Shown in pieces: positions 3,650 to 56,794 of a DNA stretch of 64,000 nt (positions within the stretch are counted from its first letter, which is position 1; every line of letters begins with the position of its first letter). The DNA is from Candidatus Rifleibacteriota bacterium (GTDB taxonomy: Bacteria; Muiribacteriota; Ozemobacteria; Ozemobacterales; Ozemobacteraceae). The DNA is taken from assembly GCA_051747585.1 (NCBI GenBank), contig JBNJGH010000003.1:1980-65979 (forward strand), read 5' to 3'. A program made the position numbers and the translations under genes. The notes beneath the pieces are model-generated. The model did no database searches, was not told the DNA's origin, and saw only the letters and a program-made list of their open reading frames with translations.

Positions 3650-3752
3650 TTACAACATGGATAATAACTAGTATTAATTTATATCACTAAATACTTGCTA
3701 AATATGCTAATATATTACCCAATTAAAATACTCAATATTAAGGAAAGGATTT

Positions 3753-19703: not shown

Positions 19704-19716
19704 AAAACAGTTCATT

Positions 19717-19771
19717 GAGCGAAACTGACTGGTGGTTTCGACTATCGCTCAACCACCAGTCAGCTTCGCTC
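19717..19771. terminator. Long, near-perfect hairpin between the convergent S2P and ferritin genes
   Basis: gagcgaaactgactggtggtt (19717-19737), a 13-nt loop, then aaccaccagtcagcttcgctc (19751-19771). The 21-bp stem has 1 mismatch and is flanked by A/T runs. Confidence 0.45.
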
Positions 19772-19793
19772 AACTACCAGTTAAAAAACCTGG

Positions 19794-23765: not shown

Positions 23766-25637
23766 ATGTGCGGAATTAATGGAATTATATTATTTGATCA
23801 ATGTAAGCCTTCTAGCGAATTAGCTCATATCGTAGAACTGATGAATGAAAAAATCATTCATCGGGGACCTGACGAAGAAGGTTGCTTTGTTAATAACAGC
23901 CTGGGACTTGGAATCAGAAGGCTATCGATAATTGATTTAAAAACCGGAAGCCAGCCGATTTTCAATGAAGACCACACCCTGGTAATGGTTTGCAACGGAG
24001 AGATTTACAATTTTAAAACCCTACGCCAGATTTTGATTAAAAAGGGGCACCTATTCTCTACTCGAACAGATTCCGAAGTAATTATCCATGCATACGAAGA
24101 ATATGGCAATGATTTTTTAGACAAGCTGGAGGGAATGTTTGCTTTTGCCCTTTATGATATTAAGCAGAAAAAAGTCATTCTCGCCCGCGACAGATTAGGA
24201 GAAAAACCCTGTTACTTTTACAAAGATCAGCATAGACTTATTTTTGCCTCAGAACTTCAAAGTTTACTGTCTACGGGTTATATAAAAAAAACAATTAACA
24301 AGCATGCCCTTGCCCAATACCTTCAATTAACCTATATACCTTCGCCATTAACTATTTATGAGGGTGTTTACAAGCTTAAGCCCGCCCATTATCTGGAGAT
24401 AAACCTAAATGGAGATATAAAAGAGAATTGTTACTGGCATCTTTCATATAAAAAGACCTTAATGGGCTATGATGATGCATGCCAGACACTGAGGAAGAAA
24501 ATTCTTGAGTCCGTTAAAAACTGTATGATCAGCGATGTGCCGGTTGGAGCTTTTTTAAGCGGGGGAATCGATTCGGCTTCGATTGTCAGTTCTATGGCTC
24601 AACTTTCCGACAAGCCCGTAGAAACCTTCACCATTGGTTTTGCCAATAAAAAGTTCGATGAACGAGATAAAGCCAGGCTGGTTGCAAACCTGTATAAAAC
24701 CAATCACCATGAATTTGTTTTGAATTTTAACCAGGCCATAACTATGATAGACAGGCTCATAGAAACTATGGCAGAGCCTTTTGCCGACATATCAACCTTG
24801 CCCACCTATTTTATTTCGCAATTTGCATCTGAACAGGTCAAAGTTGTGCTGACCGGTGATGCCGGAGATGAAATTTTTGGCGGATACAACAAATACTTAA
24901 TAAATTACTTTTCTAAAATTTACTGCAAAATTCCACGATTCCTACGCAAAGGATTCATAGAGCCGATCGTATTTAAAATTAGAGACCGGAATTTTTTAAG
25001 CAGAAAAATAAAAAAAGTTATATCAGCCTCTGAAAAGTCCTATCTAGAACAGAGTATTGATCTAATGACTCTTGGATTTAAGAGAAATGAGCTCGAACTA
25101 CTTCTAAATCCACAACACTATCAATCTGACAGTTTAAAATTCATAAAAGAAATCTATAAAGAAGCACCGGCCAACGATTCTTTGAACAAAACCCTTTATA
25201 CAGATTTAAAGGTCGTTCTAGAAGGAGATATATTTAATAAAGTCGATAAAATGAGCATGTTAAACTCCCTTGAAACCCGAGTTCCGTTTGCAGCCAGGTC
25301 TATTGTCGAGTTTGCCGCAACACTACCGATTGCCTATAAAATTAAAAATAAAAATCTTAAAATCATTCTAAAAGACAGCATGCGAAATGCATTGCCCCCC
25401 CAAATTTTAAATGCGCCGAAATCAGGATTTGAAATTCCCCTGGGCCATTGGTTTCGAAATGAGTTAAAACCAGAGCTCCTGGCGGTTTTAAACAAAAAAA
25501 ATATCGAAAAGCAGGGATTTTTTAACTATTCTTATATAAACCGTATAATACAAGAACACTTGAGTTGCAAAGTCAATCGAAGATATGAGTTATGGGTATT
25601 GTATGTTTTTACAAAGTGGTATTCGAAGCAACAATAA
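23766..25637 (+). CDS. asnB: Asparagine synthetase (glutamine-hydrolysing) family amidotransferase
   Basis: N-terminal MCGI (Ntn-type Cys2), SGGIDS PP-loop, and AsnB length. Confidence 0.85.
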   Translation: MCGINGIILFDQCKPSSELAHIVELMNEKIIHRGPDEEGCFVNNSLGLGIRRLSIIDLKTGSQPIFNEDHTLVMVCNGEIYNFKTLRQILIKKGHLFSTRTDSEVIIHAYEEYGNDFLDKLEGMFAFALYDIKQKKVILARDRLGEKPCYFYKDQHRLIFASELQSLLSTGYIKKTINKHALAQYLQLTYIPSPLTIYEGVYKLKPAHYLEINLNGDIKENCYWHLSYKKTLMGYDDACQTLRKKILESVKNCMISDVPVGAFLSGGIDSASIVSSMAQLSDKPVETFTIGFANKKFDERDKARLVANLYKTNHHEFVLNFNQAITMIDRLIETMAEPFADISTLPTYFISQFASEQVKVVLTGDAGDEIFGGYNKYLINYFSKIYCKIPRFLRKGFIEPIVFKIRDRNFLSRKIKKVISASEKSYLEQSIDLMTLGFKRNELELLLNPQHYQSDSLKFIKEIYKEAPANDSLNKTLYTDLKVVLEGDIFNKVDKMSMLNSLETRVPFAARSIVEFAATLPIAYKIKNKNLKIILKDSMRNALPPQILNAPKSGFEIPLGHWFRNELKPELLAVLNKKNIEKQGFFNYSYINRIIQEHLSCKVNRRYELWVLYVFTKWYSKQQ

Positions 25638-25713
25638 TTTGTTTACCAACCAAAATTTATAAATTAATAATTTAAAACGTGTTAATCTATTTGCCTGCTT
25701 AAAACTTGCTTTC

Positions 25714-25742
25714 TTGTATTATAAAAGGCGATATGCTATAAA
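25714..25742 (+). promoter_or_regulatory. Candidate sigma70-like promoter upstream of the GT4 gene
   Basis: TTGTAT, a 17-nt spacer, then TATAAA, about 60 nt upstream of the ATG at 25800. Confidence 0.3.
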
Positions 25743-25799
25743 TATTTTCGTCGAGCCTTATTCAAGAACCATCCCCAAACTCACCTAAGACTATACCCG

Positions 25800-26924
25800 A
25801 TGAAAACCCGAAAACGAATTGCATTCTCAGCTTCTTCCAAAGCTTTTTTGCGGTCCCGCAAGCACTTAATAAGCAAGCTGGCCAAAATGGGCCACGAAGT
25901 CTTTTGTATAGTACCCATAGAAGAAGGCGAGAACTGTAAAAACGAATTCGGCGCGGAATTTCATTGTTTACCCCTGCAAAAAACGGGATTTAATCCTTTC
26001 AGTGACCTGAAATTTCTATTGGGCCTTATAAAGCTTTTTCGCCGCCTGAAAATCGACATGACAATTGCTTTTACCATAAAACCTGTCATTTATTGTTCAA
26101 TTGCGGCCAAAATTTCTCGAGTCCCCTTTGTAAGCTCAGTTATTACCGGACTGGGCTACGCTTTTGTTAACAATTCTTTTCACCAGAAATTTGCCGGGTT
26201 TATAGCCTCAAAACTATATAAGATAGCTCTTGCCTGTAATCAAAAAGTCTTTTTTCTCAATCCTGATGACCAGATAGAGTTTTTGAACCTTGGAGCGGTC
26301 AAGCCAGATCAATGTGCAATCATAAATGGCCCGGGAGTTGATCTTGAACACTTTAATTTTTCGCCCTGGGAATCAAACAAAACCAGCTTTGTATTGATTG
26401 CTCGAATGTTAAAAGAAAAGGGAGTGATGGAATTCGTCGAAGCAGCCCGCAAAATAAAAGAAGTTTATCCTGAAACTGAATTTAACATAGTTGGACCTTC
26501 AGATCCCGGCCCTTCAGCAATAAGTATAAAAAAACTCGAAGACTTTACACGCCGGGGCCTGGTTAAATATCTTGGTTACACCGATGATGTGCGAACTTAT
26601 TTGCGGAATTCTGCCGTTTATGTGTTACCTTCTTATTATCGGGAAGGAATTCCAAGAACTAATCTTGAAGCAATGGCAATCGGAAGAGCAATAATTACAA
26701 CTGATACTCCCGGATGCAGAGAAACTGTTCAAAATGGGAAAAATGGTTATCTAATACCTCCACGTAACAGCAGCGCTCTGGCCAAAGCTATGCTAAAATT
26801 TATTGAGAAGCCATCACTCGCGAATACGATGGGAAAAGCAAGCCGAGAATTGGCAGAAAAAAGTTTTGCCGTGAATGAAATAAATCATTCTATGATGTCC
26901 GACCTCAATCTATTAGAAACCTGA
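25800..26924 (+). CDS. Glycosyltransferase family 4 (GT-B, RfaG-like)
   Basis: C-terminal EGIPRTNLEAMAIGRAIITTDTPGCRE E-x7-E-type motif. Confidence 0.8.
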   Translation: MKTRKRIAFSASSKAFLRSRKHLISKLAKMGHEVFCIVPIEEGENCKNEFGAEFHCLPLQKTGFNPFSDLKFLLGLIKLFRRLKIDMTIAFTIKPVIYCSIAAKISRVPFVSSVITGLGYAFVNNSFHQKFAGFIASKLYKIALACNQKVFFLNPDDQIEFLNLGAVKPDQCAIINGPGVDLEHFNFSPWESNKTSFVLIARMLKEKGVMEFVEAARKIKEVYPETEFNIVGPSDPGPSAISIKKLEDFTRRGLVKYLGYTDDVRTYLRNSAVYVLPSYYREGIPRTNLEAMAIGRAIITTDTPGCRETVQNGKNGYLIPPRNSSALAKAMLKFIEKPSLANTMGKASRELAEKSFAVNEINHSMMSDLNLLET

Positions 26925-26937
26925 CCGGGAGTTTACC

Positions 26938-27831
26938 GTGAATTATTTAAACGAAAAAGAAATAACTTTTGGCCAATTCAAACAAGTTGCCTTACAGCAT
27001 TACGGGTGGGCATTAATTTGTATTATCTCATTACTTTTTCTCGAAAGCTTTTTCTTTATTTATCCGCCCCGCGGCTTTGTTGCCGAAGATTTCGTTACTT
27101 TGGGCAGCATAAAAGGGCAACCTCTGTTATCTATTGACAGCCTCTGGCAAAGCAAAATCAGCGACGATATATTTATGCTTGATATTCTAGATGGTTCTGA
27201 AATAAAAAGGTTTAAAAACCGTGTAGAAAAATTGAGATACATAGAAAATAATTTGCGCCCCAATCTTCATTTTACCAGTTTAAACAAAACTATTTTTAAA
27301 ATAACCTTTATTCAACCTTCAGCAGAAAAAATCAGGCCGTTTTTGAATGTTTTTACCAAAAAGTTTCTCGATCAAGTTGCCTTAATAAGCCGGGAACAAT
27401 TGCAAAACAGAAGAAGAAACGCCAATTTTTTTTATCGGCAATTGTTGCGACGTAACGCTCTAATTCACAGCTTATTCAAACCTACAACCAAGTTTGAAAA
27501 AATAATTCCCGATCAGAAAAGTCGAATAGACAACGTATTTCCTCAAGATGAAGATAGCTGGCTTGGCAAAATTGGTCTTATAACAATTAATGAGTTAAAT
27601 AAATACCTTTTTAGAGCTCAAACTATGTTAAAAGATTATACTGACGAACAACAGAAAATATTGTCTTTGTTCCCATTTACTCACAAAAGACTCACCGATC
27701 CCGAAATGCCTCCCAAGCCTGTACAACCCTTTTTGTTTGTATTTCATATTTTTGTAGTTATAGCGATTTTCCTTATCTATATTGCCGGATTGTTTTATTA
27801 TTTTCCCTTTAAAGACGAGGACAAGTCGTAG
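26938..27831 (+). CDS. Hypothetical membrane protein with Wzz-like topology (two TM helices flanking a soluble domain)
   Basis: An N-terminal TM helix and a C-terminal TM helix (FLFVFHIFVVIAIFLIYIAGLFYYF). GTG start. Function is inferred only from topology and gene context. Confidence 0.3.
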   Translation: MNYLNEKEITFGQFKQVALQHYGWALICIISLLFLESFFFIYPPRGFVAEDFVTLGSIKGQPLLSIDSLWQSKISDDIFMLDILDGSEIKRFKNRVEKLRYIENNLRPNLHFTSLNKTIFKITFIQPSAEKIRPFLNVFTKKFLDQVALISREQLQNRRRNANFFYRQLLRRNALIHSLFKPTTKFEKIIPDQKSRIDNVFPQDEDSWLGKIGLITINELNKYLFRAQTMLKDYTDEQQKILSLFPFTHKRLTDPEMPPKPVQPFLFVFHIFVVIAIFLIYIAGLFYYFPFKDEDKS

Positions 27832-29052
27832 ATGGAAAGAGGCGTTACCGATGACTCTGCATTTCCCTTACCCCTTTCTCTTTACATCATTTTTTTTCCC
27901 ATAGCTATAGGAATCCTTGGACCAAGTTTCATTGTCGCCGACATATTTTTTCTTTTATTTATTTTTGCCTGTCTCATTAAAGCCTTTATTAGGAAACAAT
28001 TTACCATTATTTCTTTAGACGCTATATTTTTAATTTTTCTTGGGTGTACGGCATTCGGCAACAATATTACCGCTCACTTGCCCGCCTATTTGTTTGAAGT
28101 AGCTTCTCTTGTTTACATGTATGCAGGATCTCGATGCATACTAAGCCAGATTGACAGTAGCGAAAAACTAAACCAATTTATTGATCTGATAAGAAAAGTT
28201 TTTATTATATTTTTGTTATTTTCCGCCATCATAATAATTTTCAGGGCATTAGGTTTTAATCACATAACCGAGTCATTTTTCAAATATGGTAAAAATTACA
28301 AAGGCTTTTTTAATTTTACCAATCAGCTATCCATCTTTTTTGCCTGTTTATGGCCAATTACAATTATTGGCTTCTCTGAAAAGCCGGCTTGGAGATTTTT
28401 CTTTTACTTTATTTATTTAGTCATTCTCAGCTACACAGGATCTCGCAGCGGCTTCTGGATAGGTCTTGGGCAAACCACTCTAATTGAAATTCTTTTTTGC
28501 AACAAAAAACAGAGCGCATTTTTAGTGGCACGAGCTTTTGGCCTTGCCGCCGTTCTTTTTTTTGTTATAACCATTATGGCAACCATGCCGTCTTTAAACA
28601 GGAGTTTAGGACAAAACAAAGACGCTTCTTTGAGCCTGGATCAACCAAGAATTATAAACTTCCGCAATGCTTTTAACAATTCAAAATCCTGGCTAAGCGG
28701 ATATGGTTTAGGCTGTTTTGACCAGGTCTATCGCTTCGAAGTCCACAGCACTCCGTTGTCAATTTTAGTTGAAACAGGAATCTGTGGTTTTCTGTCTTTG
28801 TCGCTGGGAATTATTATTTTTGCTAATGCTTTTTTAAGGGCAAGTCCCGACCGATCCCTACCAAACCTGAAAAAAGCTCTTATCATTTCTTATTTGGGAA
28901 TTATAGGAATTGGAACAGTTAATTATTTGTTTCGAAACCGTTCCTGCTGGTTATTATTTGCAATAACCCTTGTATTTATAAAAATCCAAAGTAAAGAAAA
29001 AGTTTTACTCAAAACATTTGCAAAGACTTCTGGCGAATATAAACATAACTGA
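27832..29052 (+). CDS. O-antigen polymerase/ligase family (Wzy-like) polytopic membrane protein
   Basis: About 10 TM helices and a Wzy_C-like loop (GYGLGCFDQVYRFEVHSTPLSILVETG). Confidence 0.6.
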   Translation: MERGVTDDSAFPLPLSLYIIFFPIAIGILGPSFIVADIFFLLFIFACLIKAFIRKQFTIISLDAIFLIFLGCTAFGNNITAHLPAYLFEVASLVYMYAGSRCILSQIDSSEKLNQFIDLIRKVFIIFLLFSAIIIIFRALGFNHITESFFKYGKNYKGFFNFTNQLSIFFACLWPITIIGFSEKPAWRFFFYFIYLVILSYTGSRSGFWIGLGQTTLIEILFCNKKQSAFLVARAFGLAAVLFFVITIMATMPSLNRSLGQNKDASLSLDQPRIINFRNAFNNSKSWLSGYGLGCFDQVYRFEVHSTPLSILVETGICGFLSLSLGIIIFANAFLRASPDRSLPNLKKALIISYLGIIGIGTVNYLFRNRSCWLLFAITLVFIKIQSKEKVLLKTFAKTSGEYKHN

Positions 29053-29944
29053 CCAGCATTTTTTGAATAAAGCCTTTCCACATAGACCTCAATATTTCAT
29101 TTCGTTTTAAAAATCTGGCATATCTTAAAAATCTAAAAGTCTCACTAAGGCTCAGATGCCCAATACTTGCCAATCCTGTTTGAAAAAATTCTTTTGAAAG
29201 CGCAGTTTTATAAAATTTACCACCTTTATATTTTTCAAGAATTTTCATTCTGTTTTCATGCATATATTTGAAATTAAAAACGGTATTGCTGTCGTGTATT
29301 CTATACTTGGCAACGGGCACAGGCAAAGACCGCAATTTACCTCCCGCATCAGACAATTTAAGCCACATATACCAATCCTCTATTTTAATATTAGAATCAT
29401 AACCACCGACGTTTTGAACAGCATCTCTTCTAAGTAGGGCTGCAGGCCCTGAAGGTATGTATTTTTGCATTATAAGCTCCTCAAAACTATGCCAATGATC
29501 CATACCTTTTTGTATTTTTAATACTTTACCCTCTTCGTCAATCAATTCGTATCCACCGAAAGCTGCAGAAATTCTTGAATCTTTTTCTAATATTGGAAGT
29601 AAAATTTTTATCTTTTCGGGCAAAAGAATATCGTCAGATGCAACAACCATAAAATATTTGCCGTCTGCCCAGGCAAGTCCCTCATTTAAAGTTGGCGTAA
29701 GCCCTTTGTTAGGTCTATTTCTATACTCAAACCTCTTTAAAGAGGCTTGGCAAATATTGAGTATTGGCTTGATACGTTCATTGGTTTTGTCGTTTGAGCC
29801 ATCATTAATCAATATAAATTCCAGATTGTTATAATCCAGCCTCAAAACGCTTTTTACAGCTTCAACAACAAATTTTTCATGATTATAAGCCGGCATACAA
29901 ACAGAAATTAAGGGGTTATTTTCAGTTGTTTTTTCTTTTGCCAT
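29009..29944 (-). CDS. Glycosyltransferase family 2
   Basis: ISVCMPAYNHEKFV ... LINDGSND GT-A signature. Confidence 0.8.
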   Translation of the reverse strand: MAKEKTTENNPLISVCMPAYNHEKFVVEAVKSVLRLDYNNLEFILINDGSNDKTNERIKPILNICQASLKRFEYRNRPNKGLTPTLNEGLAWADGKYFMVVASDDILLPEKIKILLPILEKDSRISAAFGGYELIDEEGKVLKIQKGMDHWHSFEELIMQKYIPSGPAALLRRDAVQNVGGYDSNIKIEDWYMWLKLSDAGGKLRSLPVPVAKYRIHDSNTVFNFKYMHENRMKILEKYKGGKFYKTALSKEFFQTGLASIGHLSLSETFRFLRYARFLKRNEILRSMWKGFIQKMLVSYVYIRQKSLQMF

Positions 29945-30248
29945 GAGTTTTATTATGTACGTTACCTACTTTTTTAAAAAGTAGCAGCAGAATAGAATTT
30001 ATAATCTAGAACAAAAAACATACTTGGGCAAGACATAAAGATTGTAATACCAGACAAAGCTCTATTGTATGGAATCAACTCCTTGAATTTTCGAATATAT
30101 TGGAATAAGCTATAGCTTGATTGAATGTTTTCTACGCTCAAATACTTGCAGATGACTGCTTGAAAAAAAAGACAGTTAAATTAGCTATTCAGCAAATTTT
30201 TCACGTAATTTTCCAGTCTCCAACATCAAATTAAAATTCTGAAAAAAA

Positions 30249-31127
30249 TTGAAATCTGAAAACCATACTAACCAAATAATTACAAAGTTATATAAAAAAA
30301 TAAATAAGATTGTGCGGAACAAATTGTTTCCCTCAAGATCACCGTATTTCATGATCATAGGTGCAGAAAAATCCGGCACAAGTTCCTTACATTATTACCT
30401 TGACCAGCACCCACTGCTGGATGGTTCCAATCCCAAAGAGTTACATTATTTTGACCGGGAAAAATATTACAATAAAAACATAATATGGTATGAAAACCAT
30501 TTTTGTTCGTTAAGAAAAAAGATTAAACATTTCGAATCTACCCCTAATTATATTTATTATGAATCTATAGCAAGAAATATTAAGGACTTATATCCAGAAA
30601 TAAAACTAATTTTGCTACTTCGTGAACCAATTAAAAGAGCCTATTCAGCCTGGAACATGCATAAAAAATTTTTCGAGTCAAAAAAATCACCAGTAAGCAA
30701 ATTTTTACCAGATGGTTCCAGCAATCCTCTTTATAATTATTTTTATAAAAACAGATCTACTTTTCCTTCTTTTGAAGAGTGCATCCAGCTGGAATTGGAT
30801 GAGAAGGTCAAAAACACTAAAGAACCGGCTATTGTGAGACGAGGGCTATATTTTGACCAAATACAAAATTACCTGAAATACTTTTCCAGGGATCAACTTA
30901 TGATATTGGGGATCAAAGATTTAAAAGAGCGTAAAATTGAGACTTTAAATAATTTAATGAAATTTCTTGAGCTTCCCCAGTTTAATTGGAAAAGAATAGA
31001 TTTAACGGAAATAAACAAAAGAACCTATACCCAGGCAATGAAAAGCGATACCAGAAAACGACTTCAAGACTTTTATTCAGAACCCAACAAAAAACTATTT
31101 GAAAATTTTGGAGAAATTAATTGGTAA
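30249..31127 (+). CDS. PAPS-dependent sulfotransferase
   Basis: 5'-PSB loop IIGAEKSGTSSL and 3'-PB region LLLREPIKRAYSAW. Confidence 0.7.
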   Translation: MKSENHTNQIITKLYKKINKIVRNKLFPSRSPYFMIIGAEKSGTSSLHYYLDQHPLLDGSNPKELHYFDREKYYNKNIIWYENHFCSLRKKIKHFESTPNYIYYESIARNIKDLYPEIKLILLLREPIKRAYSAWNMHKKFFESKKSPVSKFLPDGSSNPLYNYFYKNRSTFPSFEECIQLELDEKVKNTKEPAIVRRGLYFDQIQNYLKYFSRDQLMILGIKDLKERKIETLNNLMKFLELPQFNWKRIDLTEINKRTYTQAMKSDTRKRLQDFYSEPNKKLFENFGEINW

Positions 31128-31148
31128 AGAACACTTTATGAATATTTT

Positions 31149-32120
31149 TTAACGAACATAGCCGAATTGTTTCAATTTTTTCTTTGAAAAGCCATAATCC
31201 TGCAAAAATAAATTATCTGCACAAAGTATTTCTGACAAATCGTGCTTTTGCGAGTCGTTGAGATAGCTATGAGCATTATCTTTTGTTACTTTTACATTTT
31301 GACACTTTGCAAGAATTTTTGAGTAAATGGGTTTAAGAAAATGAAAATTCTTTAGAAGATAGCCCAAATGAGTTTTTCTTATTTTTTCAACTCGATAATG
31401 AATTTTTTGACTCAGGGTTATCCCCGGGCTAACCTTACCATAAGAGCAATAAACGCTTTTATTACAGGGCTCACTGTTAAACTGGCTTTGAAGCATTTGC
31501 CAATCAAGTTTCAATAATTCGCCAAGCTTACCAAAATAGGAATTCGAATCGTTTTGCAGATCTTCATATAAAATTACCTCAAGATCCGAGAAATATTTAC
31601 TAATATAATTTATCAGGCGGCGATAGAAAAGAATGTCAAAAGCCTCTTTCTCCGGGTTGCGCAGGACGCCAGCAACAAATTTGTTTAAAGAATTCATATC
31701 TTTTTCATTATGAAAAATCCAACGGAACATTTCAACATAATAGGCATAAACAAAACTCGTAGGCTCTCTAAGACTTATAAGTATTTTTGTATTATAAGGC
31801 TTTAATAATTCAGCTAATTTGGGAATCATCTGTTTATGATAAAGATTATGAGAAATTGAAATACATTCTTCACTGATTACATTCATCAGATCTCTGGTTA
31901 ATTGCTCTTCAAGTTCATTTCTTATCAGCGAAATGTTTCTGCCATTTTTCAAACTGCTGAGAATCTGGCCAATGGGGTTGTAAAGACCTTCCTGCAAAAA
32001 AGCTCCATGCCGACCGAGAAAATTGATTTTTCCGTTTGAGTGAAGAGGCATCAATAAATTTGATTGTAAGGAAGTTGTAGCTGTTTTAGGTAATCCAACG
32101 TGAAGAACAATTTTTTTCAT
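31149..32120 (-). CDS. Second sulfotransferase-family protein
   Basis: HVGLPKTATTSLQ P-loop-like PSB motif at the N-terminus and RE...R region; more divergent. Confidence 0.5.
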   Translation of the reverse strand: MKKIVLHVGLPKTATTSLQSNLLMPLHSNGKINFLGRHGAFLQEGLYNPIGQILSSLKNGRNISLIRNELEEQLTRDLMNVISEECISISHNLYHKQMIPKLAELLKPYNTKILISLREPTSFVYAYYVEMFRWIFHNEKDMNSLNKFVAGVLRNPEKEAFDILFYRRLINYISKYFSDLEVILYEDLQNDSNSYFGKLGELLKLDWQMLQSQFNSEPCNKSVYCSYGKVSPGITLSQKIHYRVEKIRKTHLGYLLKNFHFLKPIYSKILAKCQNVKVTKDNAHSYLNDSQKHDLSEILCADNLFLQDYGFSKKKLKQFGYVR

Positions 32121-32123
32121 CGA

Positions 32124-33221
32124 TCAAAATCCATTAACAAGCTCTATTATTACTTTTGTATCTTCTTCATTCTGTACTGAACTAACAGGCAAACTCAAAA
32201 CCTGTTCATGAATAATTTCAGTAATTTTCAACTCAGTAGTTTGCAGGTCCTTTAAAGACTTTTGGCGGTGAGGTGGAATTGGATAATGGATCATTGTCTC
32301 GACACCATTTTCAAAAAGATATTTTTGCAAATTCTTTCGATCTTTTGCCCTTATAACAAATAAATGCCAGACATGACTATCATCTTGTATGAATTCGGGC
32401 AAAATGATTGCTGAATTGGAGATGCTTTCACAATACAACCTTGCAATGTTTTTACGCTTATTATTCTCCTGATCAATGTATTTCAACTTTACTCTCAAAA
32501 AGGCGGCCTGAAGTTCATCGAGCCGACTATTAACTCCCAGGTAATTATTGACGTATTTTTTATCACTTCCATAATTTCTCAATGCTTTAATACAGGTTGC
32601 CAACTCTTTGTTATTAGTTATTACAGCGCCCCCATCACCTAAAGCACCCATATTTTTTCCCGGGTAAAAACTGAATCCCGCAGCATCGCCAAAAGAACCG
32701 GCTTTTTTACCGAATTGGATTGCGCCATGTGCCTGAGCAGCATCTTCAATTACTAACAAGTTATGTTTTTTAGCAATTCTTACTATTTTATTCATTTCAG
32801 CAACGCGGCCATAAAGATGAACCGGCATAATAGCTCTTGTCTTTCTGGTAATAAACTTTTCTATTAAAGTTGCATCTATATTGTATGATTTAATATCTGG
32901 CTCGATTAGAACAGGCTTTAAATTATTTTCAGTTATAGATAGAATGGTCGCAAAATAAGTGTTAGCCGGAACAATTATCTCGTCACCCTCAGTTAATAAC
33001 CCAAGCTCTTTGTAAGCTCTCAAAATAAGGGTTAAGGCATCGAGCCCATTAGCAACACCAATACAATATTTTACCTTATTATAAAGCGCAAACTCTTTTT
33101 CGAACGAATCAACCTCAGTTCCCAAGACATACCAACCCGAGTTCAGCACTCGCTCAAATGCCTCACTTAATTCTTGTTTATATTGAAGATTTATTTTTTG
33201 TATGTCGAGAAAGTTGATCAC
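32124..33221 (-). CDS. fdtB: DegT/DnrJ/EryC1-family PLP-dependent sugar aminotransferase (dTDP-3-keto-6-deoxyhexose 3-aminotransferase-like)
   Basis: Family-typical N-terminus and PLP-Lys region; it sits in an fdtA-fdtC-fdtB arrangement. Confidence 0.75.
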
Positions 33222-33227
33222 AATATA

Positions 33228-33683
33228 TTATCTCAGTTTTTTTACAATTCTGGCGGGCACCCCTGCCACAAGAGCATTCGGGGGAACATTTGTGGTTACA
33301 ACTGCGCCGGCGGCTACCATCGCCTTGCTTCCGACAATGATTCCAGGCAATATAGTAGCGTTCGCTCCGATAGAAGCTCCCTTACAAATAACTGTTTCGA
33401 GAAAACTATCGGGGTATTTTCCTGATTCAGGATATTTGTCATTGGTAAAGGTCACGTTGGGTCCAATAAATACGTTATCTTCGATTTTTATACCATCCCA
33501 AACCTGAACCCCACACTTGATTGTAACATTATCGCCAATAGTTACATCATTTTCAATAAAACAATGAGAGCAGATATTACAATGTTTGCCAATTTCTGCA
33601 CCTGCCAGAACAACGCAAAATTGCCAGATATTGGTATCTATACCAATATTCTCAGACTGCACATCACTTAATTTATGAATCAT
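33228..33683 (-). CDS. fdtC: Hexapeptide-repeat (LbH) sugar N-acetyltransferase
   Basis: Left-handed beta-helix hexapeptide repeats ([LIV]-G-x-x-x-x). It sits between fdtA and fdtB. Confidence 0.7.
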
Positions 33684-34072
33684 AATAAAGCCTTGAATTT
33701 GCAGTAATCTCTAATATAATCTTCTTCAGAAAAATAATTGTCTGCCAGAACCATCAAAACACAATCTGGCGAAAAATCATATAACTCCCGCCATGTCATT
33801 TCATCGATAAAAAGCCCTCTATCAGGTGAATCAAGGGTAACTTCCGCCTTTTCAAAACCATCGTCAAGACAACATTTGCAACTGCCATTCAAACAAACGA
33901 CAATCTGCTTTAGTTTTTTATGGGCATGACAGCCGCGTTTAACACCTACTTTGGTATCGAAAATGTAATAAATTCTTTTGATTTCAAAAGGAATATTTTT
34001 CAAACTTTCTAATGCAACAAGCGAACCTCGATCATCGCCCATTATTTCAAAGTTGAAAATTGCAGGTTTCAT
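33680..34072 (-). CDS. fdtA: dTDP-4-keto-6-deoxyglucose 3,4-ketoisomerase (cupin, WxcM C-terminal type)
   Basis: Very close match to the FdtA consensus: KRIYYIFDT ... RGCHAHKKL ... VCLNGSC ... DDG. Confidence 0.85.
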
Positions 34073-34296
34073 TGATCAGCCAAGTCCTTTAAGCTTAAGT
34101 CAGCATACTCACAAAACAGGATAACACAACTTTGAACATCAAGCGCAGTGTTCTAATTCATTTGACTTAGCTCACTACAAGTATTAAATTACAGCCTGTT
34201 TAACTTGCGAATCTTCGATATATACTTTTTGAATGCGGTTACAATGTTATTAAAATTTAAAACCTTTTCTTTTAAAATCTTATTCTGGAGCTATCT

Positions 34297-35058
34297 ATGA
34301 GAAAAGTTTTTGATTTTTTTATCAGCAGTCAGGTTCGGCTCTCTGCAATTTTTGACAAGTTTCTTCCAACAATTATGAGAAGAGATGGTTATTCTGACTA
34401 CATCTCAGCCATTATGCCCACAAAGCTTAAAAGGGGCTTAAAAATTGTCGATGTTGGCGGGGGAAAAAAGCCGGTTATATCGTTGGCGCAAAAAGAAGGT
34501 CTGGGCCTCAAAATTACTGGTTTTGACCTGAGCAGCAGGGAATTAAAAAAAGCACCCCAAGGCATCTATGATCATATTTTTACCGGCGATATCTGTAAAA
34601 CCTGCATTAACTTAAATGCTGATCTGGTTATCTGTATAGCAGTTCTCGAGCACGTAAAAGATACAGAAGCTGCCCTTAAAAATATTGCTGCAATGCTTAA
34701 CCCCGAGGGAAAAGCTCTTATTTTTGTACCCTGCCGAAATTCTATTTATGCACAGTTAAATTTAATCCTTCCGCAAAATTTGAAAAGAACTCTTCTTTCT
34801 TTTTTATGCCCCGGAAGTGAAAAATACCAGGGATTTAAAAGCTTCTACGACAGATGCACTCCCGCAAAATTTAAACAAAACGTCCGCAAAGCTTGTCTTA
34901 AAGTAATTGACGAATATTATTATTTTCAAAGCGACTATTTTTCTTTTTTCCTGCCTTTACATGTTCTATACAGATTGACGACTCTTTTACTTCGTAGATC
35001 GCTTGGCAATGATGCCGCCGAAACTTTTACTCTTTTGCTTCAGCGCTCTGATGACTAA
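34297..35058 (+). CDS. Class I SAM-dependent methyltransferase
   Basis: Motif I: KIVDVGGGKKP. Confidence 0.55.
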   Translation: MRKVFDFFISSQVRLSAIFDKFLPTIMRRDGYSDYISAIMPTKLKRGLKIVDVGGGKKPVISLAQKEGLGLKITGFDLSSRELKKAPQGIYDHIFTGDICKTCINLNADLVICIAVLEHVKDTEAALKNIAAMLNPEGKALIFVPCRNSIYAQLNLILPQNLKRTLLSFLCPGSEKYQGFKSFYDRCTPAKFKQNVRKACLKVIDEYYYFQSDYFSFFLPLHVLYRLTTLLLRRSLGNDAAETFTLLLQRSDD

Positions 35059-36262
35059 GCCAGGGCGGCTGATTAGCATAAAACTCTTTATAAAGCATTG
35101 TTATTGCTATTAAAGTAATAATAGTATGGTTCGCGCACAGGCCGGCAATTTTAAAATTCAATGCCAGAAATATTGCCAGAAATATTCTGATAAATGCAAG
35201 TTTAAGCATAATTTTATTCAGCTTTGCTTCAAGCCCGAGACTGTAAAACAAAGGTATCATAAAGGCATTGGGAATAGCCATCCAGAGTGATAACCATAAA
35301 AACAAAGCTGCAAGTGTAACTTCGTTAAAAGCATAAAATTTTAAATACCATACCAGTGCACCGATTACCATGACCGAAACACAAACAGCTCCGCCAAGCT
35401 TGAAATGCCTTTTTTTTGCCAGCTCGAGCTCTTGTTTATCTGTTTTGTTAACAGCTTCGTTCATTCCCGGGTATACTGCCTGAGCACTGACATAAGACGG
35501 CCAGATGCATAATTTAAGTGCAGAATCAAGGGTTCCATAAACGCCCAACAGTTCAGGGCTAAAGAATCTGCCTGCCACCAGCGAATCGATTCTTACATAA
35601 ATTGAATTAGCAACTCCCAGCGCCATAAAAGGCCATGCTGTTTTAAACATTAATCTAAATTCATTATTGGATTTTGCAATCGGATGCGCCTGCGAAGAAT
35701 CAATAACTATTGTTTCTATCCAGACACCAATTGCGAGTGCAGCCAGTGCAACATTGGCATTAAAGGATTGAAGACTCGCACAAATTATTATAAAAAGCAT
35801 AGCCGACAAGAAATGAACTATAGAACCGCGCAGAAGCGAGCTATATTCCTGGCGGGCGTGACGATAGCCCTGATTTCCCAGTAAAACGACCCTGCCGACG
35901 CAAAAGAAGAAAGCAGCCAGCCCTGCGCCTTGCCAGCTCCAGGCAATTTCACCGAACTGGTTAAAAATTATAAAAATCAGACCGCCAAAAAATCCTAAAA
36001 TTATTCTGGTGATAATTATTTCAGGAAGTTGGGGATGAGTTCGATTATCTCTGCTGCCAAACAACACAGGAAAAGCTTTTGCCATACCCATATCAGCAAT
36101 TTGCGACACAACAAAAGCTGCATTTGAGATAAAAAAGAATTTGCCCGCTTCTGCTTTTGAACTGAATATTATCAAAGCGAACTGCAAAAGTGGAATTGCC
36201 GCCAGACTCATGGTTCTGGCAAGAGCGAAAGGTAAAATTTTTCTAAAAATAAATTCGAACAT
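35027..36262 (-). CDS. Wzx-like polysaccharide flippase (MOP superfamily)
   Basis: About 12 TM helices and a Wzx-like N-terminus; it lies within the glycan cluster. Confidence 0.6.
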   Translation of the reverse strand: MFEFIFRKILPFALARTMSLAAIPLLQFALIIFSSKAEAGKFFFISNAAFVVSQIADMGMAKAFPVLFGSRDNRTHPQLPEIIITRIILGFFGGLIFIIFNQFGEIAWSWQGAGLAAFFFCVGRVVLLGNQGYRHARQEYSSLLRGSIVHFLSAMLFIIICASLQSFNANVALAALAIGVWIETIVIDSSQAHPIAKSNNEFRLMFKTAWPFMALGVANSIYVRIDSLVAGRFFSPELLGVYGTLDSALKLCIWPSYVSAQAVYPGMNEAVNKTDKQELELAKKRHFKLGGAVCVSVMVIGALVWYLKFYAFNEVTLAALFLWLSLWMAIPNAFMIPLFYSLGLEAKLNKIMLKLAFIRIFLAIFLALNFKIAGLCANHTIITLIAITMLYKEFYANQPPWLSHQSAEAKE

Positions 36263-36361
36263 AACTTTTTGTTTTATTGGAATGCTGATAATACTGTTTA
36301 TTGATTATTTTGTCATCAACCCTTTCGCTCAACTGAAGAATACTGAACAAAAAACCAGATA

Positions 36362-36718
36362 TTCTCGGTCAATTATTATCAGCTGGTTACCAAAATTTTT
36401 GGTTTTACTTCTTTTTGTCAAATATAGAATTTAAACCACCGAGATCACCGAGGCCACCGAGTGGATTTTTTTATCTTTTTCAGCCGTGGATTGTCCGGGG
36501 GACAATCAGCCGGCGACTTTTTGTCGCCGGCTTTCCCGGCATAAGCAAGCTCTAAGAAAAACACTGGTGCTTTTCTTAGAGCTTGCTTATGCCGGGAACA
36601 AGGCTGAAAAAGATTCTCTGTGCTGCTCTGTGAACTCTGTGGTTATTTTCTTTGTGGCTTTGAGGCTTAGTGTGAGAAATTTTCTTTTTCTTAAACGAGT
36701 TGATGGTAGCTGACCGAG
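36362..36718. repeat. Full copy (R3) of the modular palindromic repeat
   Basis: The core at 36465-36602 is bounded by the 11-bp inverted repeats ctttttcagcc / ggctgaaaaag. Hairpin H1 is at 36479-36497, H2 at 36498-36522, and H3 at 36525-36586 with a 26-bp perfect stem. The flanks are about 90% identical to R4. Confidence 0.8.
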
Positions 36719-36801
36719 AATTGCTGACAAAAAACTGTTGGTTGTTATTAATCTGTCGGTCTATGGTATAATAAGAAAAAATCTTTTAGGAGGCAGGCTG
36801 A

Positions 36802-44968: not shown

Positions 44969-46852
44969 ATGAGATTTAAATTTTTTTCTATTCTGTTACT
45001 ATTATCTCTTTTTATTCCGTCCAGCTTATCTGCTCAGGGCGATTTTGATATTAAGGCTATAAGACCCGCAATTAAAGAAAACGGGCATTTTCTGGCTCAG
45101 ATTAAAGTCGTCGTTGGAGAAGATCACCTTATTTATCGCGAACAAACGAGTATTACCAGTGAATCAGATAAAATCGAGATCGTATGGCCAGATACCAGAA
45201 TAAAGCCTGACCCCTTTACCGGCAAAAAAGTAGAGGTTTTTGACGCAGGCAGTCATATTTTTAAAATACTGGTATTTAGCGAAAATCTTTCTAAAGAAAC
45301 AATCAAGCTCAAATTTAGTTACCAGGGCTGCTCAAATAAAACCTGTTTTTTTCCTACCAGTAAGACACTTAACTTTTCAGTTAAAAATGAGCCAACAACA
45401 AATCAACCGACTGACACCTCAAACAGCCCCTTTCAAATTTCCACACCCGGTCTTATGTCTTTAAATCTTGAGTCCGATAAAGAGCCTGAGGCTGAAACAG
45501 AAAAAACCAAAAAAAAAACCAGTTTCAAGCACCACAAAAAAATTACAGTAAATAATGCTGCAAAAGTTGAAGAAGAAAGCTTTGATACCGGCTTCGACCA
45601 AATGTCTTCAGTTTTAAAAGAACATGGTATTTTCTGGGTGCTGATTTTATCATTCCTTGGCGGCTTGCTGATAAGTTTAACTCCATGCGTTTACCCTATG
45701 ATTCCGATAACTCTTTCGATTATAGGCAGTCGGAAAGAAAATCAAAGTTTTTATAAAGGCCTCGGACTTTCAGCCATTTATGTCGCCGGCCTCTCGCTAA
45801 CTTATGCCCTGCTTGGACTAACCGCTGCCACTTTTGGAGCTCAGATTCGCAGCATACTTCAAGGAACTGCTTTTCAAGCAGCTATTTCAGTGATTTTCTT
45901 TTTACTAGCGCTGTCGATGTTTGATATTTTTATGATTCAGGCTCCAACTTCTTTGCGCAATAAATTAAGTAACATAAAAAAGACCGGGCTTTTCGGAATT
46001 TTTATTATGGGTCTGGTTTCCGGGCTGATGGCCTCTCCATGTGTTGCTGCACCTCTTGCAGGAATTCTTGCTTTTATTGCAGCTACCGGCAGTCAAACGA
46101 TGGGCTTCTTTATGCTTCTGCTGTTTGCCTGGGGTATGAGCATACCCTTGCTTTTAATTGGTGCCTTTTCTGGTTCGTTAAACGCATTACCCAAAGCAGG
46201 GGAATGGATGAACCGGGTCAAAGAATTTTATGGTTTCCTGCTCATGGGTGCTTCGCTTTATTTTGCCAGACCACTTATTGGCGAAACCTGGACAGATCTG
46301 GGTGTTGCGCTTCTTTTGGCAGCATTTGCAGCTTTTCTTGGCCTCTTCAATAAGCTCGAACAAAACTCAACTTTTTTGCAAAAATCATTTAAAGCATTCG
46401 GCATAGTAACAATTGCGGTGGCATCTGCATTTGCAATCAGCGCAACAGCCAGATGGGGCAGCCTGTGTATGCCCGGCCCTGCAAACGAAAGATTGCAACA
46501 ATCACAGACTATAAGCTGGAATTACGACCTCGACTCGGCCCTAAAAGAAGCTGCGGGCAAAGACCAATTAATCTTTGTCGACTTCCGGGCCGACTGGTGT
46601 ACTATTTGTCGGGAACTCGAAGAGCGGGTTTTCCCCCGCCCTGCGATTGCAAACCTTTTAAATAAAATGGTGGCTGTCAAAATTGATGCAACCACCACCA
46701 GCCACGAAATCAAGCACCTTAACCAGAAATATTCTGTTGTCGGTCTCCCCACTCTTCTTATTCTTGACTCTCAAGGCAACGAAATTAAACGAATGGTCGG
46801 AAACATCAGCACTCCCGACCTGAAATCAATCCTGGAAAAAGCCCTGAGATAA
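44969..46852 (+). CDS. dsbD: Thiol:disulfide interchange protein DsbD-like (CcdA membrane core plus C-terminal thioredoxin)
   Basis: Signal peptide, N-terminal beta domain, TM core with conserved Cys, and C-terminal WCTICRELE thioredoxin motif. Confidence 0.75.
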   Translation: MRFKFFSILLLLSLFIPSSLSAQGDFDIKAIRPAIKENGHFLAQIKVVVGEDHLIYREQTSITSESDKIEIVWPDTRIKPDPFTGKKVEVFDAGSHIFKILVFSENLSKETIKLKFSYQGCSNKTCFFPTSKTLNFSVKNEPTTNQPTDTSNSPFQISTPGLMSLNLESDKEPEAETEKTKKKTSFKHHKKITVNNAAKVEEESFDTGFDQMSSVLKEHGIFWVLILSFLGGLLISLTPCVYPMIPITLSIIGSRKENQSFYKGLGLSAIYVAGLSLTYALLGLTAATFGAQIRSILQGTAFQAAISVIFFLLALSMFDIFMIQAPTSLRNKLSNIKKTGLFGIFIMGLVSGLMASPCVAAPLAGILAFIAATGSQTMGFFMLLLFAWGMSIPLLLIGAFSGSLNALPKAGEWMNRVKEFYGFLLMGASLYFARPLIGETWTDLGVALLLAAFAAFLGLFNKLEQNSTFLQKSFKAFGIVTIAVASAFAISATARWGSLCMPGPANERLQQSQTISWNYDLDSALKEAAGKDQLIFVDFRADWCTICRELEERVFPRPAIANLLNKMVAVKIDATTTSHEIKHLNQKYSVVGLPTLLILDSQGNEIKRMVGNISTPDLKSILEKALR

Positions 46853-46892
46853 TTAGAACAATCAGCAATTCTCAGTGAACTGTTATTAGCTG

Positions 46893-47195
46893 GTTTTTAA
46901 AATCTTTGGTTTTATTTCTTTCTGTCAAATATAGAATTTAAACCACCGAGATCACTGAGGCCACCGAGTGGATTGTTTTATCTTTTTCAGCCTTGTTCCC
47001 GGCAGCAGCAAGCCCTCAGAAAAACATGAGTGCTTTTCTGAGGGCTTGCTGCTGCCGGGAAAGCCGGGCGGTGAAACCGCCGGCTGATTGTCCCCAGGAC
47101 AATCAGCCGGCTGAAAAAGATGCTCTGTGATTCTCTGAGAGCTCTGTGGTTAATTTCTTTGCGGCTTTGAGGCTTGGTGGTGTGAGGAATCTTAA
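46893..47195. repeat. Full copy (R4) of the modular palindromic repeat
   Basis: Core at 46982-47119, bounded by the same 11-bp inverted repeats. H3 is at 46998-47059 and carries the different but fully compensated stem cccggcagcagcaagccctcag. The H1/H2 block lies on the opposite side of H3 relative to R3. Confidence 0.8.
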
Positions 47196-47199
47196 ATAA

Positions 47200-47964
47200 T
47201 TATAGTCCTGTTGGCAGGTCTATAAATTCATATTCCAGCGCGAACTTTTCGGCCAGATGTTTGGCCAGAGCTTGAACTCCAAAAACCTCAGTCGCATAAT
47301 GTCCCGCCGAAACCATGTTTACTCCTACATCTCGGCAGGCTGCAACCCCCTGGTGAATAATTTCACCGGTTAAAATTAAATCGATTTCGCCGTTATAAAC
47401 CTGCTCAGCATTTACAGAGCTCCAGCCACCGCCGGAAGTAATTCCAATATTTTGAACTTTTTCTTTACCAAAATCCAGATTGGTATTGATTGGGCCAATC
47501 AATTTTTCGATTTTATTTTTAAACTCATTTAGTGATACAGGTTGCTTGAGTCTGGCAAGTACACCCACAGGATTTCTGCCTGCTCCAAAAGGGCCTTTTA
47601 CTTCTGCTTGAAGTAAGTTGGCCATTTGAGCATTATTACCAAAAATCAAATGCGCATCAAGCGGTAGATGCATGGCAAAAAGATTAAGATCGCCCTTCAT
47701 AAGCGATTTAACCATTCGTTGTTTTATGCGGTTAAGGCTTGTCCATTCTCCGCCTTTCCAGAACAGGCCGTGATGAACAAATGCAAAATCACCGTTTTTT
47801 TTGATTGCCTTATCAAAGAACTCAACAGTTGCATCAACGCCGGCAATTATTTTTTTTATTTCTTCTTTTCCTTCAAATTGCAGGCCATTGTATGAATAAT
47901 CGGGAAAATTGTAATCTGCAAAAATTTCATTAATATATTTAATCAGTTCATTTCGATTTACCAT
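47200..47964 (-). CDS. Nif3-family dinuclear metal-centre protein (YqfO/YbgI-like)
   Basis: Conserved Nif3 N-terminus (ADYNFPDYSYNGLQFEG) and the HHG motif. Confidence 0.8.
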   Translation of the reverse strand: MVNRNELIKYINEIFADYNFPDYSYNGLQFEGKEEIKKIIAGVDATVEFFDKAIKKNGDFAFVHHGLFWKGGEWTSLNRIKQRMVKSLMKGDLNLFAMHLPLDAHLIFGNNAQMANLLQAEVKGPFGAGRNPVGVLARLKQPVSLNEFKNKIEKLIGPINTNLDFGKEKVQNIGITSGGGWSSVNAEQVYNGEIDLILTGEIIHQGVAACRDVGVNMVSAGHYATEVFGVQALAKHLAEKFALEYEFIDLPTGL

Positions 47965-51920: not shown

Positions 51921-51968
51921 CCAATTTTAGATCAGTAATTCCCGGCCAAAGAAAAATCGACTGCTTTT

Positions 51969-52515
51969 AAGAATGAAAATGCATCACACTAAGCCTCAGA
52001 GCCACGGCGTTCACAAAGAAGAAATAAAATAAAAAAAGTGCATCTCGCAAAGATCGCCAGGTTCGCTAAGTCCGCAACGAAGAAATATTTCAACAAGCTT
52101 CAGACTTTTTCATTACAAATTCTTAGTATATTTTTAACCACAGAGCCCGCAGAGCTGCACAGAGAATCTTTTCAGCCATTGTTCCGTTTGTCAACAAGGG
52201 TTCAGAAAAACACTGGTGTTTTTCTGAACCCTTGCTGACAAACGGAAAGCCGGACGGTGAAACCGCCGGCTGATTGTCCCATGGACAATCAAGGGCAGAA
52301 AAAGAAAAAAACAACTCGGTGACCTCAGTGATCTCTGTGGTTTAAATTCTTTGCGCTCTTTGCGGCTTGGCGAGATGTTTTTTTCAGGATTCGACAACGA
52401 TGACGGGCAGGATGCCCTAATGCTGGGGCACCTGAGGATGCAGTGCGCCCCAATGCAACGATTACGATAACCGCTTCGCTGAGCACGAGCACGATTTTTC
52501 TTTTGTGTGAGGCAA
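51969..52515. repeat. Extended copy (R5) of the modular repeat, about 550 bp, in reverse orientation relative to R3 and R4
   Basis: Same end modules as R3/R4 plus an extra conserved insert of about 120 bp. Core at 52167-52304, with H3 at 52182-52247 (stem ttccgtttgtcaacaagggttcag). The tail shares the gacgggcaggatgccctaatgctggggcac and cgattacgataaccgcttcgctgagcacgagcacga modules with R7 and R1. Confidence 0.8.
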
Positions 52516-53523: not shown

Positions 53524-53640
53524 TGTTTACCTCTGAATGCAGTGTTCTTGACTCTAATTTTACGCTGATGCAATTTAAATAGCAAATTTACCTTAAATTC
53601 CCAGCAACATGCGTGTTAACTGCTATCAGCTGCTCTCAAG

Positions 53641-56605: not shown

Positions 56606-56794
56606 AGTTTTTTATGATTCAATTTTATCTTTATTTGCCGGCTGAAACAACAGGTAAAATCATCGCGATTATCATAAGTTAAGAGATTGCTTCGTCGGCT
56701 TCGGCCAGATCAGCCGATCTGACCTACTCTCCTCGCAATGACATATTGCGCGGTCCCTGAGCGAAGTCGAAGGGACCAGGTAACTGTTCTTTGG

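Follow-up and report, generated by a model that had tools for sequence, protein, structure and literature searches.

A MITE-like repeat family in Candidatus Rifleibacteriota with a folded core whose longest helix changes in sequence and keeps its pairing

Bacterial MITEs, such as Correia of Neisseria, ERIC, RUP, and Nezha, are short, non-coding, intergenic, multi-copy sequences. They have terminal inverted repeats, generate a target-site duplication, and show presence/absence polymorphism among relatives, and they fold into long hairpins and vary in size through internal modules. In Candidatus Thiomargarita nelsonii, MITEs with 10-bp direct and 19-bp inverted repeats were described together with TIGR01784-family genes, and a PD-(D/E)XK_2 (YhgA/Rpn-like) origin was proposed for them (PMC4853749). 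Palindromic DNA is also subject to template switching between inverted repeats, whose footprints are multi-base compensatory changes and the inversion of loops (PMC8794818).

What we describe here is a repeat family found in a stretch of 64,000 nucleotides of Candidatus Rifleibacteriota DNA, which we refer to as the window. The family has all the properties of bacterial MITEs listed above. With template-switch quasipalindromes (Monttinen and Loytynoja 2022, PMC8794818; E. coli quasipalindrome work) it shares compensated substitutions, near-perfect long stems, and loop inversion, and, as in the Thiomargarita MITEs (PMC4853749), a TIGR01784 gene is embedded between two of its copies. The feature is real and statistically solid: it represents a new family in an uncultivated phylum, and its odd property, a hairpin whose two arms covary, is explained by a combination of known processes, fitting the known behaviour of palindromes better than a new kind of system. 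On balance, we favour a lineage-specific, non-coding MITE-like family of Candidatus Rifleibacteriota whose folded core would be under selection for pairing, with template switching supplying the double changes and the flips.

The sequence-only reading had placed four full copies (R3 to R6) and three partial ones in the window, and all four full copies are present there. R3 is a complete MITE-like element of 371 bp (36356-36726), with ends (CAGATATTCTCGGTCA and TGACCGAGAATTGCTG) that form an inverted repeat, and is flanked by the 9-bp direct target duplication ACAAAAAAC (36347-36355 and 36727-36735; 9/9 in the TIR/TSD scan). Its core, in the order H1-H2-H3, occupies 36473-36614 on the + strand, with an RNA fold of -100.6 kcal/mol (z -14.8) and a covariance-model match of 141 bits. 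Within it, the 13-bp inverted repeat lies at 36473-36485 and 36602-36614, H1 at 36489-36507, H2 at 36508-36532, and H3 at 36533-36598. The left arm of R3, designated type 1 (36413-36472), has three CACCGAG heptads with 9-nt spacing, and the right arm (36615-36650), an imperfect inverted repeat of the left one, has three CTCTGTG heptads. In general, the two arms outside the core are imperfect inverted repeats of each other (60 nt, 87%), each of them with three CAC(A/C)GAG heptads spaced by 9-10 nt.

R4 (46856-47195, 340 bp) is inserted where the convergent genes DsbD and NIF3 meet, between their abutting stop codons, and is flanked by the duplication ATAATTA (46849-46855 and 47196-47202), and its right terminal repeat is absent. 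Its core (46980-47121) is on the - strand, reading H3-H2-H1 on the + strand, with H3 at 46996-47061 and H1 at 47086-47104. The two remaining copies are composite repeats. R5 (51933-52515) is located downstream of an Rpn-family gene and upstream of a transglutaminase/TPR gene; its core (52166-52306) is also on the - strand and reads H3-H2-H1 on the + strand (H3 52182-52247; H1 52272-52290). R6 (53630-54210) is located upstream of the same Rpn gene, with its core (53835-53976) in the H1-H2-H3 order on the + strand (H1 53851-53869; H3 53894-53959). R5 and R6 form a direct repeat of 549 nt with 79% identity; their flanks, first taken to be about 95% identical, measure 88-91%.

The proposed partial copies do share flank modules with the full ones, but none of them contains a core. 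The first (8975-9104, 130 bp) is a core-less element with the same ends and the duplication TTAGCTATG / GTAGCTATG (8/9). The second (3396-3670, 275 bp) is a different element of the same terminal-repeat family (CAGCAATTATCC), with a perfect 9-bp duplication (GTATTAATT), and a 29-nt side module is the only part that it has in common with R5 and R6. The third (56801-56859, + strand) is an isolated side module of 59 nt with two small GC hairpins, which is also present in R5 and R6 and stands here without a core. Altogether, the elements range from 130 to 580 bp, with four core-bearing and two related ones in the 64 kb, and they contain no credible ORF.

The core is 141-142 bp long and is closed by a perfect inverted repeat, ATCTTTTTCAGCC / GGCTGAAAAAGAT, of 13 bp rather than the 11 bp initially assigned to it. 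Inside, there are three hairpins: H1, with an 8-bp stem; H2, with a GC stem of 9-10 bp that usually has a bulged pyrimidine; and H3, the longest. H3 had been read as a 26-bp stem with a 10-nt loop, but its arms are 31-32 nt long and 97% complementary in each window copy, pairing over about 30 bp around a loop of 2-4 nt, with one mismatch or wobble near the tip. It had also been claimed that the opposite arm is an exact complement in every copy; the strict compensation is real, but the exactness gives way at the near-tip mismatch or wobble and at a single mid-stem mismatch in R5 (A.C on the + strand, G.U on the - strand), which is the sole mid-stem exception. Either strand of the core forms a four-way junction from the three hairpins, with equally good RNA folds (z -15 to -17), and the arms plus the core, folded as 248 nt of DNA, give a single long hairpin with the four-way junction (z -15.3). 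The 13-bp repeat and the H1 and H2 stems are near-invariant, and H3 is likewise fixed in sequence at its base and tip, whereas the adjacent loops and spacers vary freely, as seen in the loop of H1 and in the 2-4 nt that follow the left repeat. The core motif GATTGTCCNNNGGACAATCAGCCGG, that is, GATTGTCC-NNN-GGACAATCAGCCGG, has five matches in the window, which hit all four full copies (4/4), one of them on both strands, and none in 100 shuffled sequences.

The protein of the DUF885 gene that adjoins R3 is 100% identical to one from an NCBI MAG of Candidatus Rifleibacteriota. Among the relatives of the window, those with about 70% protein identity are syntenic with it. No trace of the family was detected in these relatives (L002-L007, about 115 kb) by BLAST, and L002, L005, and L006 also gave no match to a covariance model based on nine cores. 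A closer species is represented by JGI contigs, reached through the Rpn-family protein, whose coding DNA is 77-86% identical to the window. This species has cores at three loci: on both sides of the orthologous Rpn gene, at L010:2497-2638, and at L010:4922-5063. The same covariance model, run over 250 kb, returned no diverged extra copies. The H1-H2 motif had no match in public genome, metagenome, and viral contig collections, even though it is present in the JGI contigs, and a looser H2 pattern gave three chance matches only, all in high-GC genomes. In Rfam, the whole window has no match at the gathering threshold, and permissive E-values add only generic miRNA-precursor and hairpin models, all far below threshold. 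Plasmid, phage, and viral-contig searches yielded no match either, and no described family for the element was found in the literature searched, which together bear out the earlier impression that the element is undescribed.

The scaffold that hosts the core has the hallmarks of a transposable unit. Its terminal inverted repeats have the consensus CAGCAATTCTCGGTCA, and in R3 the end CAGATATTCTCGGTCA is identical to CAGCAATTCTCGGTCA (reverse complement) at 14/16 positions. The same end family occurs at 3396, 8975, and L010:2318. Scanning for the end motif together with a flanking 9-mer recovered exactly four elements: R3 (36356-36726; ACAAAAAAC) and 3396-3670 (GTATTAATT), both with 9/9 duplications, and 8975-9104 and L010:2318-2754, both with 8/9. 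Insertion polymorphism is evident as well. The site of R4 is empty in a relative of about 85% identity (L008), which has gagATAATTAtagg, with ATAATTA once, where the window has ATAATTA on both sides of the element; it is also empty in the relatives of about 70% identity, including L002 and L006, and R3 is missing from the orthologous site in L001. With these terminal inverted repeats, 9-bp target duplications, and empty site, the host element is MITE-like, and the contrast with ordinary MITEs drawn in the sequence-only reading was overstated. In R4, the right terminal repeat is missing and 7 nt of flank resembling that of R3 are present, so a less regular mode of arrival is probable; its truncated end and 7-bp rather than 9-bp duplication imply that clean transposition is not the origin of every copy. 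Among the window ORFs scanned, there was no DDE transposase and no serine or tyrosine recombinase. No cognate transposase with these ends was found, and the Rpn gene is the sole transposase-like gene of the window.

A side question concerns the way in which the scaffold and the core came together. The 130-bp element at 8975 corresponds to the scaffold minus the arms and the core, and the arms do not occur without the core. The core, or the arms plus the core, may be a separate insertion into the scaffold, as in nested MITEs; the repeat GGTTTAYTTCTTT at the junction is as compatible with a target duplication as with the loss of sequence between direct repeats on either side of a palindrome.

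Covariation in H3 was analysed in nine cores representing seven lineages, namely the four window copies plus the three loci of the related species. Out of 30 H3 pairs, 13 are invariant, one varies on one side only, and 16 have changed on both sides; 100% of the cells are paired, with no broken pair. None of 500 shuffles attained any of the observed measures, and sliding the partner column lowers pairing to 37-51%. When only the window cores are considered (n = 4), 16/60 pairs have changed on both sides. Many of these double changes are transversions (C-G to G-C, A-T to T-A), which are impossible via a wobble pair. Compensated changes also occur outside H3, in H1 (L010b, G-C to A-T) and in H2 (L010a and R3).

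The middle of H3 (20 bp) aligns gap-free, with no indel across the seven lineages, and its sequences fall into three lineages: R3, R4, and L010a; R5 and L010b; and R6 with the copies that flank the Rpn gene in the related species. Identity is 35-60% between these lineages and 80-85% within them, also across species (16/20 for R6 against the related species; 17/20 for R4 against L010a). The stems of R5 and R6, which had been called unrelated, are identical at 9-10/20 positions and belong to related lineages. Between the window and the related species, four-fold synonymous sites are 54.5% identical, as compared with 33/40 in the H3 middle, which means that the latter evolves about three times more slowly. 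Selection on structure, one of the three explanations offered at the outset, is supported by this rate and by the absence of indels in seven lineages, and the term hypervariable is misleading for a stretch that, of all the paired parts of this strongly conserved element, is just the one under the least constraint.

Three further ideas about the origin of the stems were considered. A swapped-in cassette, also among the initial explanations, is neither supported nor needed, since the stems are related, align position by position, and form three lineages common to both species. A captured or guide-like sequence was rejected, as the 20-mers of the H3 middle match nowhere else in the DNA examined with up to 4 mismatches. 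An assembly artefact was rejected too: mismatches are retained where present, and the independent NCBI and JGI assemblies give the same pattern. The 32-nt arms, moreover, are shorter than the usual final k-mer sizes of assemblers, which also counts against an artefact.

The core is not only variable in sequence but also in orientation, an observation overlooked in the sequence-only reading. Both in R3 versus R4 and in R5 versus R6, the flanks are direct and the cores inverted. Moreover, in a four-way alignment with collinear flanks, R6 of the window reads H3-H2-H1 and its related-species orthologue H1-H2-H3, from which it follows that the core flipped after the two species split. Since the two arm types differ as soon as the 13-bp repeat ends, the inversion breakpoints must lie within this repeat. 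One trait of invertons, a segment between inverted repeats that is found in both orientations, is present here. On a smaller scale, the 18-nt tip of H3 is either AAAAACACTGGTGCTTTT or its exact reverse complement, AAAAGCACCAGTGTTTTT, independently of the orientation of the core. These inversions, on the scale of the tip as well as on that of the entire core, support a templated DNA route, in line with the hairpin-templated repair that had been suggested. Within a genome, adjacent copies resemble each other more closely (98-100% identity in the related species, 82-92% in the window) than orthologues do, the repeat modules being 81-87% identical from one species to the other. This pattern indicates gene conversion and amounts to concerted evolution, which accounts for the similar flanks and the different stems of R5 and R6.

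The favoured account brings these observations together as follows. A transposable scaffold, defined by the CAGCAATTCTCGGTCA terminal inverted repeats, 9-bp target duplications, and a long imperfect-palindrome interior, carries the 142-bp core between its two heptad-bearing arms, and this core folds into the four-way junction. Sequence-specific contacts would be made at the 13-bp repeat, H1, H2, and the base and tip of H3, whereas the 20-bp middle of H3 would act as a spacer helix, free in sequence but fixed in pairing and length, within a folded nucleic acid that is recognised as such. A change in one arm would be copied to the other, or reverted, by template switching or arm-to-arm conversion, and the same processes would flip the H3 tip and the whole core. 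Template switching by itself would give a neutral rate of change. The observed rate is lower, and selection on pairing would therefore be needed as well. The recognised form is more likely folded DNA than the product of an RNA gene, because both strands and orientations are tolerated, no transcription signals are attached, and the units have target duplications. The anatomy, the covariation, the insertion polymorphism with its target duplication, the two kinds of inversion, the conservation above the neutral level, and the concerted evolution of adjacent copies are observed, whereas selection on the folded DNA (or RNA) form, the template-switching route, and the enzyme that would mobilise the element are inferred; the account draws on seven independent core lineages, and template switching is read from its footprints. 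As a separate consideration, the conservation across species could reflect a function for the host instead of selection at the level of the element.

Among the alternatives, the first takes the core for a structured non-coding RNA (a small RNA gene or a cis-regulatory element), in which H3 would change by compensation at the RNA level and the flanks would be incidental. The strong covariation with 100% pairing, the very stable folds, and the conservation above the neutral level speak for such an RNA. The few non-Watson-Crick pairs point weakly in the same direction, as they are G.T (G.U in the RNA) on one strand in five lineages versus two in the frame of the flanks, numbers too small to decide between RNA and DNA. 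However, this RNA would belong to no Rfam family, the only resemblance being to generic miRNA-hairpin models below threshold, and the promoter and terminator scan found neither signal attached to the core. Both orientations of the core occur within the flanks, every orientation is also found with respect to the neighbouring genes (divergent, convergent, and tandem contexts), the H3 tip inverts, and the target duplications show the unit behaving like an insertion of DNA. Furthermore, since one mismatch in a 30-bp helix has only a small energetic cost, arms so close to perfect would not be expected from selection on RNA folding alone. Taken together, these points make an RNA gene unlikely.

A second alternative assigns the core to the adjacent Rpn-family PD-(D/E)XK_2 gene, annotated as a putative transposase/invertase (52516-53523, - strand; PF12784, 1.2e-30; TIGR01784, 3.3e-29). 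According to it, the core would be the cis site of a site- or structure-specific recombination run by this nuclease: the enzyme would have the cruciform or four-way junction as its target, inversion of the core would take place at the 13-bp repeats, and both the Rpn gene and the repeats would be mobilised by it. The gene lies between two direct copies, the counterparts of R5 and R6, in both species, and its paralogues, 82-96% identical, are mostly found on short contigs that stop at these repeats, with most Rpn-bearing contigs below 2 kb. Nearly all copies keep the 13-bp repeats unchanged, and the inversion breakpoints must fall within these repeats; the heptad triplets resemble protein-binding sites, and a link between MITEs and PD-(D/E)XK_2 proteins was suggested for Thiomargarita (PMC4853749). 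A link between the element and the adjacent gene is therefore possible. On the other hand, two other Rpn paralogues of the related species have no core nearby, 4/7 core loci are not beside an Rpn gene, and neither the inversion at perfect 13-bp repeats nor the flip of the tip between 32-nt arms needs a dedicated enzyme. From the work on the E. coli Rpn proteins, no Rpn protein is known to transpose or invert DNA. We therefore regard recombination run by the Rpn nuclease as rather improbable, and we would be slower still to see in the folded core the long-sought cis DNA substrate of the Rpn-family transposase/invertase. If it were such a substrate, the contacts of the nuclease would be the two shorter stems, H1 and H2, together with H3 at its base and at its tip, and the H3 middle would be a spacer of fixed length. 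Cleavage at the invariant 13-bp repeats would result in inversion of the core and in movement of the Rpn gene as well as of the non-autonomous copies. The Rpn gene might then integrate as a circle into a resident copy, and its flanking direct repeats would be explained in this way. The three conserved H3 lineages could, in that case, mark compatibility groups.

It is also doubtful, to a similar degree, that these are neutral palindromes in decaying junk repeats, with arms kept perfect by mechanical arm-to-arm correction and neither function nor selection. Template switching alone can hold arms identical and flip loops (PMC8794818), and concerted evolution between neighbouring copies is evident. 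Nevertheless, an unbiased correction of the arms would proceed at the neutral rate, contrary to the 33/40 of the H3 middle against the 54.5% of four-fold sites, and it would not produce almost invariant H1 and H2 stems and 13-bp repeats beside freely varying loops and spacers, a constant stem length without indels, or whole modules with 81-87% identity across species. Finally, intrinsic (bidirectional) transcription terminators carried by the repeat, as might be suspected from the stable GC-rich hairpins, from R4 between convergent genes, and from R5 and R6 downstream of genes, were rejected as very improbable. None of the hairpins has a T-run behind it, and no site in any core was picked up in the scan for terminators; in addition, R3 lies between divergent genes, and a 30-bp stem with two hairpins within a closing stem is unlike the anatomy of a terminator.

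The favoured MITE-like family with a folded core offers a natural case of a 30-bp helix in non-coding repeat DNA in which 16/30 pairs have changed and none is broken. Since covariation and the inversion of loop and core coincide in the same copies, it provides a test bed for separating structural selection from templated mutation. The Rpn/PD-(D/E)XK_2 proteins form a large family of putative transposases without defined DNA ends, and the structured repeat that flanks one of their genes here represents a concrete substrate for study. From a practical point of view, these repeats break metagenome contigs, and they can pass for RNA genes in screens based on covariation.

Compared with the systems described so far, REP/BIME/REPIN sequences (RAYT Y1) are also GC-rich extragenic hairpins arranged in mosaics of modules and in both orientations, and compensatory change is reported in REPIN stems. 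However, the defining features of REP/REPIN-RAYT are absent here: there is no GTAG-type 5' head, the scanned ORFs of the window include no RAYT/Y1 gene, the unit is far larger, and target duplications are present where RAYT/IS200-type movement leaves none. Integron attC sites resemble the core in that folded single-stranded DNA serves as the recombination site, with a conserved structure and a free stem sequence. Contrary to attC, the core has neither R''/R' sites (RYYYAAC / GTTRRRY) nor the pattern of extrahelical bases, its boundaries being ATCTTTTTCAGCC / GGCTGAAAAAGAT, and there is no integrase or cassette array, the copies lying 1.6-10 kb apart among housekeeping genes. The flip/flop of the parvovirus AAV ITR and the invertons share with the core the occurrence of a branched palindrome, or of a segment lying between inverted repeats, in two orientations with the outer arms unchanged. 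Unlike the terminal palindromes of parvoviruses, the copies described here are chromosomal and internal rather than genome ends, and, unlike invertons, the invertible piece has no promoter-like site and no serine or tyrosine invertase is encoded among the scanned ORFs.

Template switching is a mutational mechanism and not a family of elements, and it leaves unexplained the sub-neutral rate and the constant length of the stem. In the Thiomargarita MITEs (PMC4853749), which are likened here by their description and not by sequence, a covarying core was not described and the link with the nuclease genes is one of association. Bacterial MITEs share their features with the family, with the partner insertion sequence, which was not found, as one difference. 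The other two concern the interior, which is a separately bounded four-way-junction core that inverts in place, and one of its helices, which is free in sequence yet strictly paired.

The site of R3, one of the full copies of the MITE-like repeat (36356-36726 in the window), lies at the right edge of a polysaccharide-synthesis stretch of about 12.5 kb (23766-36262), whose genes include those for an asparagine synthase, glycosyltransferases, a Wzy-like protein, a sulfotransferase, and a DegT aminotransferase, and whose GC content is mostly lower (0.33-0.38 over 24-36 kb). The syntenic genomes at about 70% protein identity lack this stretch, and there the 274-aa gene directly adjoins the DUF885 gene. 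In a related species, the site of R3 (L001:2146-2260) is taken by an element sharing its left end with a 275-bp element present in the window at 3396-3670. The ends of this 275-bp element belong to the same terminal-repeat family as those of the studied repeats (CAGCAATTATCC...), and a perfect 9-bp duplication, GTATTAATT, is found at it. However, its interior is quite unlike that of the studied repeats and holds inverted repeats of its own.

The Rpn gene, a PD-(D/E)XK_2 putative transposase/invertase gene located between the full copies R5 and R6 (52516-53523, minus strand), carries five 12-bp units (CCTTCTTTGCGG) in tandem inside its coding sequence (52715-52774), whose translation would be a short Ala/Lys-rich repeat close to the protein's C-terminal part. 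In the related species, the pair of repeats flanking Rpn (L008:388-782 and 2174-2568) is 98-100% identical. Moreover, one and the same repeat is joined to differing Rpn paralogues and left contexts in contigs from different samples (L008, L010, L018, and L019), which could mean that the repeats have been sites of rearrangement or that the assemblies are chimeric.

A further hairpin repeat varies in its middle but is constant at its ends (GTCATTGCGAGG ... CGACGAAGCAATCTC), with one copy in the window (56650-56790) and three tandem copies in the related species (L009:6685-6814 and L009:9159-9300).

Regarding terminator-like hairpins, the peptidase M50 gene and the ferritin-like gene converge on a 32-nt inverted repeat (84%, with a 13-nt spacer; 19706-19782), which is probably a terminator hairpin. 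aaaaaagcggctcgtctcgagccgcttttttttt, 3' of the zinc-ribbon gene (56884-56912), has the look of a classic intrinsic terminator that works in both directions. The repeat cores are unlike the intrinsic terminator of this genome that the latter exemplifies.

Smaller modules are also discernible. A 59-nt module with two small GC hairpins (gggcaggatgccc; ggggcac...gtgcccc) is found within R5 and R6 (52401-52459 and 54075-54133) and also standing alone (56801-56859), its copies being 85-86% identical to each other. Within the flank modules of the repeat element (36651-36690, 47155-47190, and 52350-52380), degenerate units about 8 nt long (CTTTGCGG / CTTTGAGG / CTTGGTGG) form short tandem runs with a variable number of units, resembling a minisatellite inside the element.
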